From Cyanidioschyzon merolae (taxonomy: Eukaryota): DNA of 64,000 nucleotides. The stretch lies in the NCBI GenBank assembly GCA_000091205.1, contig AP006502.2. One strand, written 5' to 3'. Below, one piece after another: positions 3,886 through 51,078 of this stretch. The position numbers and the translations under genes were made by a program. The notes below the pieces were generated by a model. That model worked only from the letters and a program-made list of their open reading frames with translations, was not told the origin of the DNA and ran no database searches. How positions within the stretch are numbered: the first letter of the stretch is position 1; the number at the start of each line of letters is the position of its first letter.

Positions 3886-5652
3886 TCAGCCATTAGCATC
3901 CTGTTCAATGCGAAGCGCTACCATCGCCTGGTTTGCTTCTGTGTCTCCCGTCGATTGCAGCAATCGGCGTCGCTTGCGGTAGTACCAGAGCCCGAACCAG
4001 AGCGCAACACTTGTGACCAGGAGTGGAACCATAATGAACAAAAGGACATTTGCGTGCTTCCGTATAAAGATGCCTATACTGCCGAAGAGCGTCGTTTCGC
4101 TGCGGTGTCCGCTTGGCGCGGATGATCGAGGTTCGTCTTGATCGCTTGTTGACCCGGAGCCCGTCGGGTGTGTGGTCGTGAAAGGGATGCATCCGCGAGC
4201 CGACTGAAACCCTATCCGTTTGTGTGCTCGATCATACACAGTGAAAAAGTTGCGCAGCCACACGAGACCTAATATCGCTTCGACACCATAGCTGGGCCCG
4301 AGGGACGGCTCCTCCGCGATCCCCATGCAGTAAAATGTTGGTTCTGGTGGATTATCTACCCGAACGAAATACTGTAGCGGAGTCAGCGTCAAGTTCCCAG
4401 CGCCAGCTAGCGTGAATGTTAGGTTGGGAAACTGTCGGACTTCCTCTGGAGAATACGATGCGCACGCAGCGTGATCCAGTATACTCGGTTCTTGGGCATT
4501 ATCCGGACACACATACGGAATATGGCAGTAGTGCGCACGAAGGTAGTCTCGGAACGCCGCAAACGCTCCTGTTGAAAGGGCGATGAGCGTCGTGCCCGAG
4601 TCCACGAATGCGCTGTGCCGATTGGCAATGCCCGCATCGTGTCCATCGATATACACATGCTCTAGCTCTATATCATAAAAAAGATGGTGCACAATTGGCG
4701 TCCACCGGATCTCCATCGGATCCATACGAGAATCCATAGCGCCAAGTACAAGACGCCCTTGCTCGTCGCTCACACAGAGACTGAACACATCTTCAGGGAC
4801 GAGTCGGTGCTGCAAGAGCGTTTCGAAAAACGGTAGCGTGCACAGCGGGTTGCATGACAGCCCCGGATACGCCAGGCCGAGCATCCCTTCAATGCCGCTG
4901 CCGAATACATCGGGACTGCGTCCCTGCGCTGACTCGATACCACCGAATACCATGGGCGCCGCACGGCCCGCTGCACCGACCATTCCCGCAACATAGCGGC
5001 CGTTGAAAGCAGTACCGTCCCCGTAACGGATCTGATAGATGCAATGTCCACGTCCGTCACAGATACCATGCTGATCAGGTTCACAGGAAAAGGTCTCGGG
5101 CGGATCGCCCAGCGGCGCTGTGCGGCTTCCGCAGTGCAGCGTGCGATCCTCGTCGACTTGCAGCCGCCGCTTGCCCGCCGGGCAAGCATCGCACACGCTC
5201 GTGATAACTGCTAACGAGGACGAGCCGGTATCCACTGAAAGGGTGTACGGGGATCCATCAATTTCGATTGTTGTTGCATACATACCGATGTGTACGAGTG
5301 AGCCATAGAGAGGCAGTTCTATTGGCGAGATCTGGGCATGGAGGGCGGCGTTCCCGTTGGGTTCTAGTGCAAGCGGCCGCGACTTGCTGATCGGGACACG
5401 ATAACTGCTGTTCCGTAATTGAAACAACGTTCGCACGTGCATGTGTTGAGCATGAGTAGAAGCACTCTGTCCGCGGATCGTATCCCAGGTCAAAGCTCGT
5501 CGCTGTACGCGTTTCAGCGCGCACACGCGCTTTATGCGGTAAGCGCCTATGCTGCCGATCAGGGCCCCGAGGAAAAACAGCGTTAGCACGAACCCCAGCC
5601 ATGCTGCGCTTGTTCGAATCGTTCGACGCCGCAACTCAGAAGCTCTGTGCAT
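3886..5652 (-). CDS. membrane-anchored pepsin-like (A1 family) aspartic protease
   Basis: Both catalytic motifs are present: LSVDTGSSSLAV and AFVDSGTTLIAL. There is an N-terminal hydrophobic anchor (LGFVLTLFFLGALIGSIGAY) and a C-terminal TM segment (VLLFIMVPLLVTSVALWFGLWYY). The ORF is open up to 5994 but begins with GTG; in-frame ATGs lie at 5799 and 5652 (checked as cat on the + strand). Confidence 0.8.
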   Translation of the reverse strand: MHRASELRRRTIRTSAAWLGFVLTLFFLGALIGSIGAYRIKRVCALKRVQRRALTWDTIRGQSASTHAQHMHVRTLFQLRNSSYRVPISKSRPLALEPNGNAALHAQISPIELPLYGSLVHIGMYATTIEIDGSPYTLSVDTGSSSLAVITSVCDACPAGKRRLQVDEDRTLHCGSRTAPLGDPPETFSCEPDQHGICDGRGHCIYQIRYGDGTAFNGRYVAGMVGAAGRAAPMVFGGIESAQGRSPDVFGSGIEGMLGLAYPGLSCNPLCTLPFFETLLQHRLVPEDVFSLCVSDEQGRLVLGAMDSRMDPMEIRWTPIVHHLFYDIELEHVYIDGHDAGIANRHSAFVDSGTTLIALSTGAFAAFRDYLRAHYCHIPYVCPDNAQEPSILDHAACASYSPEEVRQFPNLTFTLAGAGNLTLTPLQYFVRVDNPPEPTFYCMGIAEEPSLGPSYGVEAILGLVWLRNFFTVYDRAHKRIGFQSARGCIPFTTTHPTGSGSTSDQDEPRSSAPSGHRSETTLFGSIGIFIRKHANVLLFIMVPLLVTSVALWFGLWYYRKRRRLLQSTGDTEANQAMVALRIEQDANG

Positions 5653-9678: not shown

Positions 9679-10701
9679 ATGCAGCAAACCTCGGGCACGA
9701 CTGCCGCGGTACGTGCACTCGGCGCCAACGGCGGCAGCAGCACCGACGCTGTCGATACCACAGAAACGCTCGAACGCAAGTGCGTCGTGTGTCAGTCAAC
9801 CGAAGAGGTGCGTGTTTTTAGTGCAAACTGTGAGCGTTTATGTGTGCCGTGTTTCGTGGAACGTTTTGAGCGCTCCTTCCGGTACGCAGTGCAACGCTGG
9901 TCTATGCTCTCGCACGGAGAGCGCGTTGCTGTTGCGTTGTCCGGAGGTCCAGCCTCGCTTGCGCTTCTTGAGCTTTTGCACGGACTTCGGCGGGGGTTTG
10001 CGCATCACAAGGGTAAGATACGACCCAAGCACTTTGAAATTGTCGTTTTCCATGTTATCGTGCCAGCGGGGTATGGGGGCAATGGGGCCAGCGGCGCTGC
10101 CGCTCTCCAGGCGCTTGTACAGGAGCGCTATGGGCTGACTGTCCACACCGTTGATGAAGCACTGTTTCTTGCCCGCGCAGATGCGCTAGAAATGAGTACT
10201 CGGGATCCGATGGCAACGAATCACCAGCTAGACGTGCTGGATCCGACCATTGCGCCCGCGCTCGTTGCAGGCATTGTAAACGCTCTGCTGGAGCGGATGG
10301 CGGAAGCATACGAGTGCAAGAAACTATTCCTGGGCACAACGGTTACCCGAGCTGCGATCATAACCATCGCACGAGTAGCGACCGGGAATCCGCTACGTCT
10401 TGACGCCGAGATCGGAGTAGACTACCACTCGTCGACCGCAGGCTGCCAGGGATCGGCATACGCCTCAAGTGGTCCTCTTCGCTGGCTCCGCCCGTTGCGA
10501 AATATTTCTCTTCGCGACGTCATTCGATATCTTCGCGCTCGTGGCTGCACTGCGTGGATTACTCCAGCTGAGCCATGGGCACAGGAAAACATAGAAAGCA
10601 CTGCCGAGCGCTTCATATGGCGAGCTCTCGAAACGCGACCTGCAACTTCATTTTCCGTTGTGCATAGCATAGAGCGAGCTTTGAATCTAAGTGCCGACTA
10701 G
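9679..10701 (+). CDS. CTU2: cytoplasmic tRNA 2-thiolation protein 2 (CTU2/NCS2-like, degenerate PP-loop)
   Basis: The N-terminus has a CxxC…CxxCF zinc motif followed by a degenerate PP-loop, ALSGGPASLALLELL. This pattern matches CTU2 rather than TilS/CTU1. The listed ORF start at 9613 is TTG; the first in-frame ATG is at 9679. Confidence 0.55.
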   Translation: MQQTSGTTAAVRALGANGGSSTDAVDTTETLERKCVVCQSTEEVRVFSANCERLCVPCFVERFERSFRYAVQRWSMLSHGERVAVALSGGPASLALLELLHGLRRGFAHHKGKIRPKHFEIVVFHVIVPAGYGGNGASGAAALQALVQERYGLTVHTVDEALFLARADALEMSTRDPMATNHQLDVLDPTIAPALVAGIVNALLERMAEAYECKKLFLGTTVTRAAIITIARVATGNPLRLDAEIGVDYHSSTAGCQGSAYASSGPLRWLRPLRNISLRDVIRYLRARGCTAWITPAEPWAQENIESTAERFIWRALETRPATSFSVVHSIERALNLSAD

Positions 10702-45727: not shown

Positions 45728-46421
45728 AGTCGCTGGACGCAGCCCTGTGGAGACGGTCACACATGCGAGCACCGATAGCTGGCTGAGCGCTTCAGGAATA
45801 AGGAAATGTCCTGACGCTTCTCAACTGGATGCTGGTGGATAATGTTGTCGTGCTCACTGAGCTGCATCGCGTGCTCGAACGAAACACACGGGTTGCAATG
45901 CGCAGACGAACCGAAAGTTCTCGGCTATAGAATGCGTAATGAAGCGCGCTGCGGCAGGCACTTTGTTTCTCGGTGCAGTGAACACGGGTGAACCAGCTGT
46001 GAATCAACGGCCGTGTCCACGACAACACTCGTTGCACATTTGCTGCTCGCAACAAGCGCGAGCAGCTCGAATTGCGCATCAGCATGCCACTGCATCTTGA
46101 ACGATTACCGGAACTGAGGCCGTGGTACATTGCCGTGCTGCATTGTTCTGGCCCAAAACGTACCCGTGCAGGGGTGAACCTCACAGACAGCCTGTTGGAA
46201 CGCGCTGTGGACACGGAGATCTCGATGCTCGATGCTGCTTGCGGTACAAGGAATTGTACCCAAATGCTCTTTCCCCTCAGTTGGTCTCATCGAATAGACC
46301 GATAACGGTCTCTACGCAGAGAAATGCATCATCCTTGGAGCGGTATGGCCTGCTGCATTGCCGAGTAGGCGATTTCGAGCGAGCGAGGCCATCGCGACCC
46401 TGCTGGCAGTGCACACGAAAA

Positions 46422-46745
46422 GCGCTCACTTTCACCAACAGACAGGTAGGTAGCTTGAAAGGCAAGGAGGTCGCACTGCAGCAACCATTCCCCCTGATTG
46501 CCTGATTGATATCGCTTTGCGAGCCGGCAGCGCTCACTTTCACCAACAGACAGGTAGGTAGCTTGAAAGGCAAGGAGGTCGCACTGCAGCAACCATGCCC
46601 CCTGATTGCCTGATTGATATCGCCTTGCGAGCCGGCAGCGCTCACTTTCACCAACAGACAGGTAGGTAGCTTGAAAGGCAAGGAGGTCGCGCTGCAGCAA
46701 CCATGCCCCCTGATTGCCTGAACGATATCGCCTCGTTAACCCGCT
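46422..46745. repeat. 108-bp tandem minisatellite, 3 full copies (units start at 46422, 46530 and 46638), with a degenerate partial copy near 46800
   Basis: The unit is gcgctcactttcaccaacagacaggtaggtagcttgaaaggcaaggaggtcgc(a/g)ctgcagcaaccat(t/g)ccccctgattgcctga(t/a)(t/c)gatatcgc(t/c)t(t/c)gcgagccggca, with more than 95% identity between units. The spurious minus-strand ORFs here show the identical 36-aa repeats expected from 108 = 36 x 3. Confidence 0.85.
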
Positions 46746-47300
46746 AGCCTGCCCGATAGAAACTGCACCTGCACAGTCACGCACGGTGCACCTCTCATGC
46801 CGTTCAGGCCGGCAGCGCTGACAAACACCACGCGCTCATCCGTAGATTTCTCCGGAAACCTTGCCCCGATATCCCTCGCAATAGTAGCGCCCGCGGTATG
46901 AACAAAAACCTCGTTCTCCGCGGTGACGACTCCAAGACGCCTTGCATCATCACCGCTACACTGGACGATGCGCGCTCCCATGCCGAAGCCACACCCAAGC
47001 TCGCTCGCTGGCCTCAAACAGCACCAACACCGCTACCAACACCACATTATGTCTCCAACTGCAAGTGCAGCAATGCAGCAGTAGCCCAGCTATATGGATG
47101 CATCCCAGGCGCCTAGACCGGCGATCCGCTACGCAACACGCTGCCTGGGCCTGTGTAGACGCTGCGGCGCTGGCGCTTCGCGAAACCAGACATACCCGCG
47201 CATACCGCTTCACACCGAAAACTTTTTGGTGCTTTTTGTTTTCGTATTGTTTCGTTGCTTGGAACGGTCCACGTACCTGCCGCACGAACTCAGCTCATTC

Positions 47301-48389
47301 ATGGCCAAGCGGCCGCGTCCAAGTGCCTCACAAGAGGATCTCCAAGAAAGGGATGAAGCGATTGACGGGAAATTGTTGCGCTATCAAATAGCACAGCTTG
47401 GTGCTTCCTTGCAAGCTCGACAGGAGGAGCTGCAGAGGCTGCAGAGCCGGGTGGAAACCCTAGAGCGGGAACTGGCAGAGCATGATGTTGCGCAAAAGCC
47501 CGAGCTTCGGCCCGAATGGGAGCCTCTTGTCCAGGCTGCAGTGGCTGCGAGGAAGGTAGAGCGTCTCGAGCAGGACCTCGAGGACGCCCGCCAACAGCTC
47601 ACGCAACAGCGGCGTCTTCTCGTTCGTTTAGAGTGCGGAGTCTCTGTTACCGGTACCAGCACTGCGACTGATCAAGCACCTGTTCCCAAGCCAGACTCGT
47701 CACCTGCTTCGGAGCAGTCGTCAGCGCCGGAACGCAACGATACGCTAGCGGGCACTGCGGCCGCAGAGGCGCCATCGTCGACCTCCGCTGGGCCTCAGCA
47801 AGTCGACACAAAGCAGGTATCCGTCCTACAGTCCCAGGTAAATGAACTGGAAACAAGGATTAGTCTTTTGGCAGAGGAACTCGCACAGGAGCGTGAACTC
47901 GCTCGAGCCGTTCGCGAACAACTCGAGAGCAGCGCGCGGGAGAAAGCGGAACTAGCGAGTGCACTCCAGGTCGCCCAGGAGCAGGCACAGAACCCAGAGC
48001 CAGAGGTTATTCGGGCGTCGGCCACCTACAAGAGCATGGAGGCCCATTTACTGATTCTTCTGCGGGCTGAACAGAAATGGAGTCAGGATCGGGAAGCGCT
48101 TGTCCGCGAACGCGATGAGCTCTTGATTCGCGCTAACCAGGAACAAACAGTCGAGAAGCGAGAGCTCCTTAGCGAGATCGAGAAGCTCAAAGCAAAAATA
48201 AATGAGAAGAACACGGAAACGGAATGGCTGAAGGAGAATGTAGCCAAACTACAGATGATGTACGAGGAGAAGAAAAAAGTCGCTGTTGATCCCGTGGTTC
48301 TAGACGAGACCAGCAGAGCTGTACGCCAACTGCAGGAACGGAACGCGGATCTCAGCACGAAATTACAGAGCATACGGACAGCCGAAGCG
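47301..48389 (+). CDS. BRE1: E3 ubiquitin-protein ligase BRE1 (H2B monoubiquitin ligase), exon 1 (coiled-coil region)
   Basis: A long coiled coil starts at MAKRPRPSASQEDLQERDEAIDGKLLRYQIAQL (an upstream in-frame ATG at 47094 is also possible). The exon ends in phase 0 directly before GTAAGT at 48390. Confidence 0.7.
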
Positions 48390-48773
48390 GTAAGTTTATA
48401 CAGTTACTGACGTAGCGGAAAGCGCCTCGCGTTGCTTCTCCTGGATGCACGGGCGCTTTCATAGAGCTCGACTCCATTCAGTCAGTCAGTCAGTCAGTCA
48501 GTCTGACTGACTGTCTGTCTGTCAGTTTGTGTGCATGTGTTTGTATGCACATGACCAGCACCCATCGTTGACGTTCTTTGGCGAACACTGGCGTCATCTG
48601 GTGATATGCGAAGCCACAAGGCGACGCAAGCGATACGAGCGCCCGTACCGCCGTCGACGCCATGCAGCGGGTGCCGGTGACCACACGGGTATAGCGTTGC
48701 CGGCTGACTCGGGCCCAAGACTACCACACGCTTATCGAACCGAACAGAGCACTAACCGATTCTCATCAACCAG
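48390..48773 (+). other. spliceosomal intron of BRE1 (384 nt, GT…AG, phase 0) containing a palindromic (CAGT)6/(ACTG)n microsatellite
   Basis: The donor is gcg|gtaagtttat. The intron has an in-frame stop. A pyrimidine tract …ccgattctcatcaaccag| precedes the acceptor at 48772-48773. The downstream exon continues in frame (DVQSASEDASEYLAEIETL…). The microsatellite cagtcagtcagtcagtcagtcagtctgactgactg lies at about 48478-48515. Confidence 0.65.
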
Positions 48774-49580
48774 GATGTACAGAGCGCTTCTGAAGACGCA
48801 TCGGAGTATTTGGCAGAGATCGAGACCTTGTCGTCCAGCTTGACCAAGGCGGAGGCCTCCATCGCACAACTCACGGAACGCCTTATCGAGAAAGAAGCAA
48901 CCCTAGGCAAAGTGCTCGCGGAAAGGCTCAAATACATTCAGCAGCAACTGACGTTAAAGGAGCAGCTGAAAGTGGAAGCGAATCGCGCCGAGAAAGAACA
49001 CGAGCTCTCGCAACAAATCAGCCATGCATTGACTGCAGCACGGAATCAGGTGTCCGAGCTGCAGAGCCAGTTGGAGAAAATGAGTAGCGAAATGCGTATT
49101 GTTCGCAAGCAAGCCGACATCGCCCGCCTCGGCGCCGAAAAGAGCGCGGCGGAAGCGTATACCCAGCGGCAGTTTGCCGAGTCCGCCCAATCGCAGGTAA
49201 GACGCCTCAGTGGAGAACTGGCTCAGCTTCGTGGTCAGATCGAACAGCAAACAGAGGCGCTGCGTGCTGCAGACGAAGCGAAAACGCGTAGCGAACGACG
49301 CGTGTCGCGGCTGGAGCACGAGCTCGAACTATTACGCAAGCGCAACGCTGCAACGAGCGCTAGCGATGTCGACTGGCAACACGAAATGATCGAAGATATG
49401 CGACGCAAGCTCTACTGCACCGTCTGCAAAGCTCAGGAGAAACAGGTTACACTGCTTCGCTGTTTTCACATGTTCTGTCGGGATTGCATTCAAACGAATA
49501 TCGCGAATCGAAATCGCAAATGCCCGTTATGTGGCGAAAAATTCGGCACCGACGATGTGAAACCGATCTTTTTCGTCTGA
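48774..49580 (+). CDS. BRE1: BRE1 exon 2 (coiled coil plus C-terminal C3HC4 RING finger)
   Basis: The C-terminal RING is CTVCKAQEKQVTLLRCFHMFCRDCIQTNIANRNRKCPLCGEKFGTDDVKPIFFV, which matches the BRE1/RNF20 RING consensus. Confidence 0.75.
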   Translation, partial: DVQSASEDASEYLAEIETLSSSLTKAEASIAQLTERLIEKEATLGKVLAERLKYIQQQLTLKEQLKVEANRAEKEHELSQQISHALTAARNQVSELQSQLEKMSSEMRIVRKQADIARLGAEKSAAEAYTQRQFAESAQSQVRRLSGELAQLRGQIEQQTEALRAADEAKTRSERRVSRLEHELELLRKRNAATSASDVDWQHEMIEDMRRKLYCTVCKAQEKQVTLLRCFHMFCRDCIQTNIANRNRKCPLCGEKFGTDDVKPIFFV

Positions 49581-50115
49581 GCGACTCGCGAATGCCAGGA
49601 GTACGGTTTGCTCCACGTAATGAGCGTCCACGCTTGCGAGCATGAATGTATGGATGTGTGTGCGGGCGTTCATATGCACGTGGCTTTTAACGAGATCATG
49701 TAGGTACGAGCGAGGATGTGTGGATTTGGCACAAGTCTCGCCAGGGCGCCTGGTACACCAGCACCACCAGCATCACATGAGCGATTGACGCCTGCAGCTG
49801 CCTCCTCTGCGCTGACCCTTAAACGATTCAAACGATTATCAAAGGGCGTACCTGCAGCGCATTCGAATGATTTCCAAGGGCAAACACCCGACGCGTCTGC
49901 TACGTGTTTTGGACACGAGCTCGCCTTTGCTCCTGGTCACCATTCATCGGATGCGAGATTTGCCAGATACTGCCGATGCAGCAGTCCTCCAGGTAGATGC
50001 GTTAAAGACGCGGTACCATGCAGCCTCCGAGGCAGCGGCGACGACGTGGTATTCGGGCGCTCGTCCAACAACTGTTGGGATTCAGCTGCGTTGGGCTACT
50101 CGGGCAAGGGCGCAC

Positions 50116-51078
50116 TCACCCGCGCTCAGCTTCCGACTGACGCTGCTCCTGTTGTTGTTGTTGTTGTTGTTGCTGCTGCTGCGACCTCGATAGCGGATGC
50201 ATCACAAAGTCCAGCGTCCGTCGCGTCACTGGCGCTGAGGGCGATGCATCCGCAATGCCTGGTGCGCTGCTGCCCAGCGCCCCGGGTTGGGTTTCAGGCT
50301 CCGTCTCAACGCCTGACTCGAAGAAACTCCCCGGTTGTATCTGACCAATGTCAGCGAGTGCGTCGCGGGCCTGCACCAACAGCGTCTCTGCTTCCTGTTG
50401 CTTCCGTCCGTGTCCGCGGCGGAAGAGGATATACACCCGCACACGCAAGCCGCGCATGAGGAACTCGCGAGCGCGGCGCATTTTCAGCGCAAAGTCGTGA
50501 CTCTGTGTCACTGGCGAGAGACGAATCTCCTTGGTGACTTGTTGGCGTGTTTTCCGTGCTGCTTTCACCATATTCCGCTTGGCTTTGGCGGATCTCGTCG
50601 ATAGTACGTCACGTGCGGACGTAACGAGTCGACAGACCGGCAAAGGGCGTGCTTTGGGCGCCACTTCGACCAGATCGAGTCCACGGCTCGATGCCTTCTG
50701 CAGCGCATCTGCCACAGAGAAGGTGCCCAGTGCCTCACCGTTGGTATCCACAAGCAGACACTGCATCGTAGAGGGAATTTCATCGTTCACACGAAGACGT
50801 GCTTTCTCTACCATGCGGGGCTTGACCTGCGATGCAGCCGCAACTACAAAGCTTCTCCGGGCCGTCGATGCAACCTCCACTGCAACTAGGCTTGCGCAGC
50901 TCGCCTTGCTGTACTTTGCTGCAGTCGCTGTTACACCGTACAATGCCGACTGCACATGTCCAAGCACCCGGGTGTAACCAGTGTCTGCAGCAGCTCCCGG
51001 CAGTCGACGGCTTTGTGTGCTAGTCCGGGACAGCGTCTCGTGCGAGAAGCGCATGCCAAACGCATCCCTACGAGGCAT
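50116..51078 (-). CDS. infC: organellar (plastid or mitochondrial) translation initiation factor IF-3 with transit-like presequence and C-terminal poly-Q tail
   Basis: The IF3 N- and C-domains are present: RVNDEIPSTMQCLLVDTNGEALGTFSVADALQKASSRGLDLVEVAPKARPLPVCRLV…KEIRLSPVTQSHDFALKMRRAREFLMRGLRVRVYILFRRGHG…. The ORF is open up to 51789 (GTG). The start was set at an in-frame ATG preceding a Ser/Thr/Arg-rich presequence, but it is uncertain. The Q11 tail is encoded by a (CAG/CAA)n repeat at about 50150-50185. Confidence 0.6.
   Translation of the reverse strand: MPRRDAFGMRFSHETLSRTSTQSRRLPGAAADTGYTRVLGHVQSALYGVTATAAKYSKASCASLVAVEVASTARRSFVVAAASQVKPRMVEKARLRVNDEIPSTMQCLLVDTNGEALGTFSVADALQKASSRGLDLVEVAPKARPLPVCRLVTSARDVLSTRSAKAKRNMVKAARKTRQQVTKEIRLSPVTQSHDFALKMRRAREFLMRGLRVRVYILFRRGHGRKQQEAETLLVQARDALADIGQIQPGSFFESGVETEPETQPGALGSSAPGIADASPSAPVTRRTLDFVMHPLSRSQQQQQQQQQQQEQRQSEAERG

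Follow-up and report, generated by a model that had tools for sequence, protein, structure and literature searches.

A position-conserved intron with a length-polymorphic inverted microsatellite in a BRE1-like gene of Cyanidioschyzon merolae

Introns of Cyanidioschyzon merolae can yield RNAs of their own. Stable RNAs have been reported from 23 of 39 introns, 11 of these 23 RNAs being unclassified species (sieRNAs) described as highly structured, and 11 of the 39 introns host C/D snoRNAs (Geertz et al., bioRxiv 10.1101/2025.12.01.691491). A published account (PMC11376382) describes the organism as devoid of RNA interference machinery. Splicing in C. merolae is inefficient and condition-responsive, with published efficiencies of 42-50%. 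The introns of these algae are yeast-like: the published Cyanidiophyceae consensus reads GUAAGU at the 5′ splice site, ACUAACC at the branch site and AG at the 3′ splice site, 85% of introns of this type contain an early in-frame stop, and phase 2 is the commonest phase.

The intron described here lies in a 64,000-nucleotide stretch of contig AP006502.2 (hereafter, the window), which matches C. merolae 10D. It matches all three consensus elements exactly and, like most introns of this type, meets an in-frame stop early on; its phase is 0 rather than 2. With the sieRNA and box C/D snoRNA introns it shares the genome, the retained-intron class and a hairpin-rich predicted fold; unlike them, it has no snoRNA boxes that we could find and an interior without sequence constraint. 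The microsatellite that it carries has the perfect 4-nt units, whole-unit allele steps and degenerate flanks (TCTG, ACTG) of other polymorphic compound tetranucleotide arrays. Unlike those, it continues in the complementary motif without changing strand, making an inverted repeat prone to form a hairpin or cruciform.

Altogether, this is very probably an ordinary, known intron with a young, variable repeat and no detectable function. The region would be the one intron, canonical, yeast-like and of U2 type, that interrupts the C. merolae gene for a BRE1-family E3 ligase, presumably one of the few dozen introns surviving in this genome. An intron would already have occupied this position in the ancestor common to Cyanidioschyzon, Cyanidiococcus and a GC-rich lineage more distant from them, and the inverted compound microsatellite, (TCAG)n/(CTGA)m, would be a young, C. 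merolae-specific, hairpin-capable product of replication slippage. On this evidence the repeat appears to be neutral; if the intron has a role, it would lie in splicing-dependent expression.

Gene identity and splicing evidence

Members of the BRE1 family (yeast Bre1, human RNF20/RNF40, plant HUB1/HUB2) have in common a long coiled coil and a C3HC4 RING finger at the extreme C-terminus. The C. merolae protein, 628 residues as compared with about 700-1000 in the family, is built likewise (Table 1). A Pfam search with a 631-residue query placed PF13920 and PF00097 at residues 576-619, and the RING finger can be aligned with those of BRE1A, BRE1B and yeast Bre1. These three proteins also provide the best matches among solved structures (BRE1A, E = 2.8e-12; BRE1B, E = 6.5e-12; yeast Bre1, E = 4.5e-10 and 6.1e-10), with RING2 and other RING proteins scoring below them. 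The alignment with human BRE1B covers residues 238-626, spanning the exon junction and reaching into the coiled coil. The Pfam BRE1 domain, PF08647, was not reported in the C. merolae protein at E values up to 0.01, a weak negative given the divergence of the coiled coil; the domain is present in the remote matches P0008-P0010. The name BRE1, given in the initial annotation, thus agrees with the structural matches, and assignment to the BRE1 family of RING E3 ligases holds at the level of sequence; the corresponding putative activity would be Rad6-dependent monoubiquitination of histone H2B. The N-terminal sequence MAKRPRP of exon 1 is found in all orthologues, and the gene order UbiA / BRE1 / IF3 is common to C. 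merolae and the orthologous loci.

Splicing is documented by three contigs (L001, L015 and L016) from three sequencing runs and independent assemblies, in which position 48389 is joined directly to 48783 (GAAGCG/AGCGCT) and which encode an uninterrupted protein of 628 residues. The intron is present in the genomic or unspliced contigs L006-L014, L017 and L019. The intron-less contigs measure about 3 kb, as against 23-128 kb for the long genomic contigs bearing the intron, and their exon-1 haplotypes are nested among those of the intron-bearing contigs, from the nearest of which they differ at 1-3 positions in 1089 nt. From their size, bounds and nested haplotypes, we infer that they derive from RNA. 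The possibility that they represent a genomic intron-loss allele is unlikely, in view of the nested haplotypes and the transcript-like size. Two further contigs (L009 and L010) have bounds similar to those of the intron-less ones, yet retain the intron, which fits the splicing efficiency published for this organism.

Table 1. Features of the BRE1-like gene and its intron (positions in the window)
Feature	Position	Strand	Remarks
Exon 1	47301..48389	+	363 complete codons, coiled-coil part; contigs L001, L015 and L016 collinear to 48389
Spliceosomal intron	48390..48782	+	Phase 0, 393 nt, GT...AG; exactly missing from L001, L015 and L016
5′ splice site GTAAGT	48390..48395	+	Matches published Cyanidiophyceae consensus GUAAGU
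First in-frame stop, TGA	48408..48410	+	Six codons into the intron
(TCAG)6.5 microsatellite, 5′ arm of hairpin	48478..48503	+	Identified by TRF
Inverted arm CTGACTGACTGTCTGTCTG	48503..48521	+	(CTGA)2 degenerating into (CTGT)
GT-rich palindrome GTGTGCAT...ATGCAC	48528..48549	+	Predicted second hairpin, 8 bp
Branch site ACTAACC	48751..48757	+	Sole ACTAACC in the window; inferred branch A at 48755
Proximal in-frame AG	48772..48773	+	18 nt from branch A; unused in assembled transcripts
3′ splice site AG in use	48781..48782	+	Junction in three intron-less contigs
AG implied by GenBank model	48817..48818	+	BAM83209.1, 616 aa
Exon 2	48783..49580	+	265 codons and stop; coiled coil, then C-terminal RING
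C3HC4 RING finger	49410..49541	+	Residues 573-616 of the 628-aa protein; Pfam PF13920, PF00097, PF13923

The end of exon 1 at gcg/GTAAGT, proposed from the window alone, proved correct. Seven in-frame stops occur within the intron; the TAA noticed at the outset is one of these and falls inside the branch site. A transcript retaining the intron is predicted to give a 369-residue product lacking the RING domain, and prokaryote-style gene calls of 369 residues are found on many contigs. Scanning both strands of the window identified the full signature GTAAGT...ACTAACC...AG in this one place only, in agreement with the initial view that no other gene in the window is clearly spliced. Two weak intron candidates, at 10013 (plus strand) and 2551 (minus strand), were rejected, as one falls within an open reading frame and the other is antisense to a YbeY gene.

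The inverted microsatellite and the evolution of the intron

The repeat described initially, a run of cagtcagtcagtcagtcagtcagtc followed by tgactgactg, is present and is the sole (TCAG)/(CTGA) run of three or more units in the window. Its hairpin-prone nature was likewise supported: its inverted arms, one at 48479-48497 and the other at 48503-48521, have 19 nt each and show 89% complementarity, and the predicted fold of the 81-nt segment has a free energy of -35.8 kcal/mol (z = -5.07), none of 200 shuffled sequences being as stable. The neighbouring GT-rich stretch, also noted at the outset, forms the second hairpin of Table 1. For the intron as a whole, folding predicts a succession of hairpins, somewhat more stable than shuffled sequences (z = -2.21; 1 of 100 shuffles as stable).

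The array is polymorphic among environmental contigs about 99% identical to one another, with (TCAG)n at n = 4, 5, 6, 7 or 10 and a (CTGA) arm of one to three copies. Intron lengths range from 381 to 409 nt among these near-identical contigs and alleles differ by multiples of 4 nt. The inverted arrangement is retained in all near-identical alleles, something that can be due to simple common descent. Relatives that keep the intron have no such microsatellite in it. As a multi-allelic tetranucleotide marker, the array could serve to tell apart C. merolae-like populations sampled from hot springs.

Comparison with orthologues, suggested in the initial annotation, showed that Cyanidiococcus yangmingshanensis (L002), L003, L004 and L005 all have an intron at this codon boundary. 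The 5′ splice hexamer is GTAAGT in L002, L003 and L004 and GTAAGA in L005. Depending on the lineage, the intron measures 156 to 409 nt, that of C. merolae being about 95 nt longer than those of Cyanidiococcus and L005. When metagenomes were scanned for orthologues of greater divergence, all loci recovered were near-identical and C. merolae-like.

Between species the interior of the intron is unalignable, local alignment scores being equal to the shuffle mean, and no stretch as long as a guide (12 nt or more) was conserved above chance. A likeness perceived by eye between C. merolae and Cyanidiococcus (GTGATATG...GGCGACGC) received no support from local alignment against shuffled sequences. The intron contains 1.53 SNPs per 100 nt, and the third codon positions of the exons contain 8 in 629 (about 1.3 per 100). 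L002 and L004 differ at 5.70% of intron positions and 5.66% of exon-2 third positions, with an even distribution of the differences (P = 0.93). The interior thus evolves at about the synonymous rate, in what amounts to roughly neutral drift. Visible constraint is confined to the splicing signals: GTAAGT, the 10 nt or so that precede the branch site together with ACTAACCGA, and the AG about 27 nt downstream. The BRE1 intron therefore provides a useful negative example for the study of intron survival, with a conserved position and an apparently unconstrained interior; beyond housekeeping, its importance is small.

Alternative roles for the intron

The initial annotation had suggested that the intron or its microsatellite might specify a snoRNA or some other regulatory RNA. 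Searches with non-coding RNA models gave no encouragement to this idea. Rfam reported no family at gathering score anywhere in the window; at E values up to 10 in the interval 48300-48880 it returned only sub-threshold, miRNA-like and other matches on the repeat hairpin, taken as chance, the best miRNA match being mir-341 (20.6 bits versus a gathering score of 90). The form of this proposal deserving most attention is that the intron has been retained as host of a stable non-coding RNA of the sieRNA type, whose fold would comprise a stem at 48418-48460, the microsatellite and the downstream hairpins. The published frequency of stable and structured intronic RNAs in this genome, the hairpin series predicted here and the conservation of intron position in relatives all speak for it. 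Nonetheless, we consider it unlikely: an interior that cannot be aligned between species, accumulates evenly spread changes at the synonymous rate and varies in overall length as widely as stated above shows none of the restraint expected here, the most stable element is the very repeat that is polymorphic in length and missing in relatives, and neither of two published papers on C. merolae introns mentions the BRE1 gene in its text. The predicted folding does weigh somewhat against the reading of an ordinary intron, since structure is present even if the repeat itself accounts for it. Hosting of a box C/D or H/ACA snoRNA, as in 11 other C. merolae introns, is highly improbable. Box D-like CUGA tetramers do occur, four on the sense strand, but two of the four belong to the inverted arm of the repeat; no box C (RUGAUGA) is found on the intron sense strand even with one mismatch allowed, no Rfam snoRNA model matches at E values up to 10, and the species have no block of 12 nt or more in common.

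A different possibility is that the microsatellite hairpin regulates splicing, so that allele length tunes BRE1 expression. Its strong predicted stability (-28 to -44 kcal/mol across alleles), the extra length of the C. merolae intron relative to those of Cyanidiococcus and L005, and the inefficient, condition-responsive splicing of this organism are compatible with such a role. It is nevertheless quite improbable, as no other lineage that keeps the intron has the element, the arms vary freely in length with predicted stability spanning 16 kcal/mol between alleles, and in a published analysis splicing efficiency was not predicted by any feature of the introns. Lastly, prokaryote-style callers divide the locus into products of 369 and 256 residues, as would be expected if splicing did not occur and the region contained two separate genes, one for a coiled-coil protein and one for a RING protein, or a pseudogene. 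This reading, mentioned in the initial annotation along with an assembly error, can practically be dismissed: the three spliced contigs encode one continuous protein, the BRE1B alignment crosses the junction, the splicing signals conform to the canonical pattern, the residues flanking the junction are conserved in the orthologues, and four orthologous loci have the intron too. The same evidence upholds the original proposal of one gene split by an intron. An ordinary intron of a BRE1-like gene, with a repeat of recent origin, remains the interpretation that we favor.

Competing acceptors and the public gene model

The initial annotation had placed the acceptor at AG/gat (48773/48774), for an intron of 384 nt (48390-48773). 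This AG exists and is in frame; it is not the acceptor, since the three spliced contigs resume at 48783. The junction that they contain sets the intron at 48390-48782, that is 393 nt, and removes residues DVQ from the mRNA. Splicing thus skips an in-frame CAG lying 18 nt from the branch A and takes the AG at 27 nt. The spacing in orthologues, where branch-to-AG distances are 26, 26, 28 and 34 nt, agrees with the acceptor at 48782, and every orthologue has seven residues between the junction and EYLAEIE.

A spliced model of the gene already exists in public databases, where the 10D protein is entered as an "unknown ring-finger protein" (BAM83209.1 / XP_005539245.1 / UniProt M1VCH3). As the coding sequence of BAM83209.1 is already spliced, the intron is known and would count among the previously annotated introns of the genome. 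The annotated intron belongs to the same gene and uses the same 5′ splice site; joining exon 1 to 48819-49580 reproduces the BAM83209.1 translation exactly. This model drops EYLAE, a motif that three species share without change, and because of this loss its acceptor (exon 2 from 48819) is probably misannotated. Moving the acceptor to 48782, 36 nt upstream, restores 12 residues (SASEDASEYLAE), EYLAE included; the corrected BRE1 structure yields the 628-residue product, the public 616-residue model being short by these 12. One misannotated C. merolae intron was reported by Slat et al. (bioRxiv 10.64898/2026.05.17.725761); it may be the intron described here or another. The same study counts three genes with alternative 3′ splice sites.

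We would give only a slim chance to more elaborate scenarios, in which a stable lineage-specific sieRNA is built around a variable (TCAG)n/(CTGA)m hairpin core, or condition-dependent use of acceptors 48773 and 48782 yields BRE1 isoforms with and without DVQ. The proximal AG at 48773 may serve a minor isoform.

The acceptors at 48773 and 48782 are both in frame, nine nucleotides apart.

Structure of the BRE1 gene and position of its 3′ splice site

The first BRE1 ORF ends at a GTAAGT hexamer (see table). Reading through past 48389 in frame yields VSLYSY followed by a TGA (48408-48410); six more in-frame stops lie beyond it, including a TAA inside the branch site. Thus, the in-frame TAA reported in the initial annotation is present, as one of seven. 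The second ORF shares the frame of exon 1, ends at 49580 and encodes a C-terminal C3HC4 RING. The closest database relatives of the protein are cyanidiophycean. Its top matches among solved structures are human BRE1A (E = 2.8e-12), BRE1B (E = 6.5e-12; alignment over residues 238-626, spanning the exon junction) and yeast Bre1, with RING2 and other RING proteins ranking below. The Pfam BRE1 domain was not detected in the window protein. Judged by these similarities, the protein belongs with BRE1, as originally proposed.

Features of the BRE1 locus
Feature	Position	Strand	Remarks
BRE1 exon 1 ORF	47301 (ATG)-48389	+	363 complete codons, then GTAAGT
(TCAG)6.5	48478-48503		TRF, 100% matches
Inverted arms, 19 nt	48479-48497 / 48503-48521		repeat finder, 89% complementarity
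Branch site ACTAACC	48751	+	sole copy of the heptamer in the window, both strands

An uninterrupted 628-aa ORF is found on three intron-less contigs from separate runs, L001 (SRR29605865), L015 (SRR29605874) and L016 (SRR29605741). All three are collinear with the window to 48389 and restart at 48783 (junction GAAGCG/AGCGCT); therefore, the intron spans 48390-48782 (393 nt, phase 0). The donor initially proposed (GTAAGT at 48390) is confirmed, whereas the acceptor shifts slightly, from 48773 to 48782. The intron-less contigs measure about 3 kb, while every long genomic contig (23-128 kb) is intron-bearing. The exon-1 haplotypes of the intron-less contigs nest within the intron-bearing set, 1-3 differences from the nearest member, and two further contigs, L009 and L010, retain the intron despite having similar bounds. 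Based on size, haplotypes and the intron-retaining pair, we infer a transcript origin for the intron-less contigs and consider an intron-loss allele unlikely. L009 and L010 (window 46692-50178) are about 3.4 kb long with ends nearly those of the spliced contigs. They probably represent unspliced transcripts, in keeping with the inefficient splicing that has been reported; such molecules are expected given the published efficiency of 42-50% (Slat et al., bioRxiv 10.64898/2026.05.17.725761).

Three in-frame AGs lie 3′ of the branch site, at 48772-73, 48781-82 and 48817-18. Use of the first would add three residues (DVQ); use of the last would remove SASEDASEYLAE. The last is the GenBank choice: BAM83209.1 (C. 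merolae 10D, "unknown ring-finger protein", 616 aa, 1.62-Mb record) is the exact product of exon 1 plus 48819-49580. The window is accordingly 10D itself or a sequence that cannot be told apart from it. The gene is therefore already modelled as spliced in public annotation, with an acceptor 36 nt downstream of that of the assembled transcripts (48817-48819 vs 48781-48783). The GenBank protein is 12 residues short; the missing stretch contains EYLAE, a motif unchanged across three species, and the 3′ splice site of this model is probably misannotated. Orthologue spacing decides the acceptor choice independently of the intron-less contigs. Comparison with related species, suggested in the initial annotation, identified an intron at the same codon boundary in L002 (Cyanidiococcus yangmingshanensis), L004, L005 and the GC-rich L003. 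In each, exactly seven residues separate the junction from an invariant EYLAEIE, and the branch A lies 26, 26, 28 or 34 nt from the AG, to be compared in C. merolae with 27 nt for 48782 and 18 nt for 48773. No orthologue has an AG between branch site and acceptor.

None of the three spliced contigs uses the in-frame CAG at 48772-48773, only 18 nt from the branch A; all use the CAG at 27 nt. In the predicted whole-intron fold, the proximal AG falls in a loop closed by a small CAUC/GAUG stem. The L003 intron (4093-4248; protein identity 47%) is 156 nt long, divisible by three and free of in-frame stops. As a result, gene callers read through it (681-aa protein P0004); its retention would add 52 residues without truncation.

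Microsatellite and intron interior

TRF, inverted arms and folding agree that the inverted repeat and GT-rich stretch noted initially are real. An 81-nt segment folds into a predicted hairpin of -35.8 kcal/mol (z = -5.07; 0 of 200 shuffles as stable), and the GT-rich stretch 3′ of the repeat is predicted to form its own 8-bp hairpin. This is the only (TCAG)/(CTGA) run of at least three units in the 64 kb, and none of the four orthologous introns contains it. Near-identical contigs carry (TCAG)4, 5, 6, 7 or 10, with CTGA x1-3 and CTGT x1-2. The resulting introns are 381, 389, 393, 397 or 409 nt long, and their hairpins are predicted to range between -28 and -44 kcal/mol. In 4-nt register the array reads TCAG x6, TCTG, ACTG, ACTG, TCTG, TCTG, TCAG, TTTG..., that is, a compound, degenerating tetranucleotide repeat switching by chance to the complementary motif. 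This polymorphic, lineage-specific microsatellite behaves as neutral and slippage-prone, the hairpin being a by-product.

Stable RNAs occur in 23 of 39 C. merolae introns: 11 box C/D snoRNAs, RNase MRP RNA and 11 "sieRNAs" (Geertz et al., bioRxiv 10.1101/2025.12.01.691491). The suggestion that the BRE1 intron may harbor a snoRNA found no support. Across the whole window, no Rfam family attained its gathering score. A search of 48300-48880 for ncRNA models at E up to 10 returned only weak miRNA-type matches on the repeat hairpin (best, 20.6 bits, where the gathering score is 90); RNAi machinery is described as absent from C. merolae in at least one account (PMC11376382). The intron sense strand has no box C, even with one mismatch allowed, and the interior does not align between species (local scores, 12-21; shuffle means, 16-18). 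Apart from the 5′ splice site, the species have in common only CGAACAG..ACTAACCGA at the branch site. A comparison of eight C. merolae-like sequences of ~99% identity gave 6 SNPs over the 393-nt intron (1.53/100 nt), compared to ~1.3/100 at exon third codon positions and 2.04/100 in the 5′ flank. Two Cyanidiococcus-type loci diverge by 5.70% in the intron and 5.66% at exon-2 third positions, their 17 intron differences being evenly spread (longest clean run P = 0.93). The sequence pattern is that of an unconstrained interior and argues against a constrained stable RNA.

About 10 nt 5′ of the branch site are kept in C. merolae (48741-48759), L002 (about 4359-4379) and L005 (about 4356-4375), the rest of the intron being randomised beyond CGAACAG..ACTAACCGA, which L003 lacks. 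This element may be an extended branch-region signal.

Introns and repeats around BRE1

A both-strand scan for GTAAG[TA], then [AT]CTAAC, then AG matched the BRE1 locus and two weaker candidates, both rejected (one within an open ORF, the other antisense to a YbeY gene). BRE1 thus remains the only full match, in line with its description as the only clearly spliced gene here; with 39 introns genome-wide, one in 64 kb is already above expectation. Slat et al. find 26 of these 39 annotated correctly and 1 misannotated, the other 12 being new, with consensus GUAAGU / ACUAACC / AG, early in-frame stops in 85% and alternative 3′ sites in three genes. The main texts of Slat et al. and Geertz et al. 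do not name the BRE1 gene. The BRE1 intron is real, ordinary and already annotated.

Between the UbiA gene and BRE1 lies a 108-bp tandem repeat (46421-46733; 2.9 copies, 97% matches). Spliced and unspliced contigs all begin inside it, placing the repeat in or beside a 5′ leader of 600 nt or more. The environmental contig L006 is one unit short; hence, copy number varies. On the other side, the gene for an IF3-domain protein (minus strand) is convergent with BRE1. One of the spliced contigs, L015, terminates at 50083 and so does not quite reach the IF3 stop (50116); contigs that retain the intron pass this stop and continue to about 50178. A (TGT)/(CTGTTG) repeat at 50150-50181 encodes a polyglutamine run near the IF3 C-terminus.
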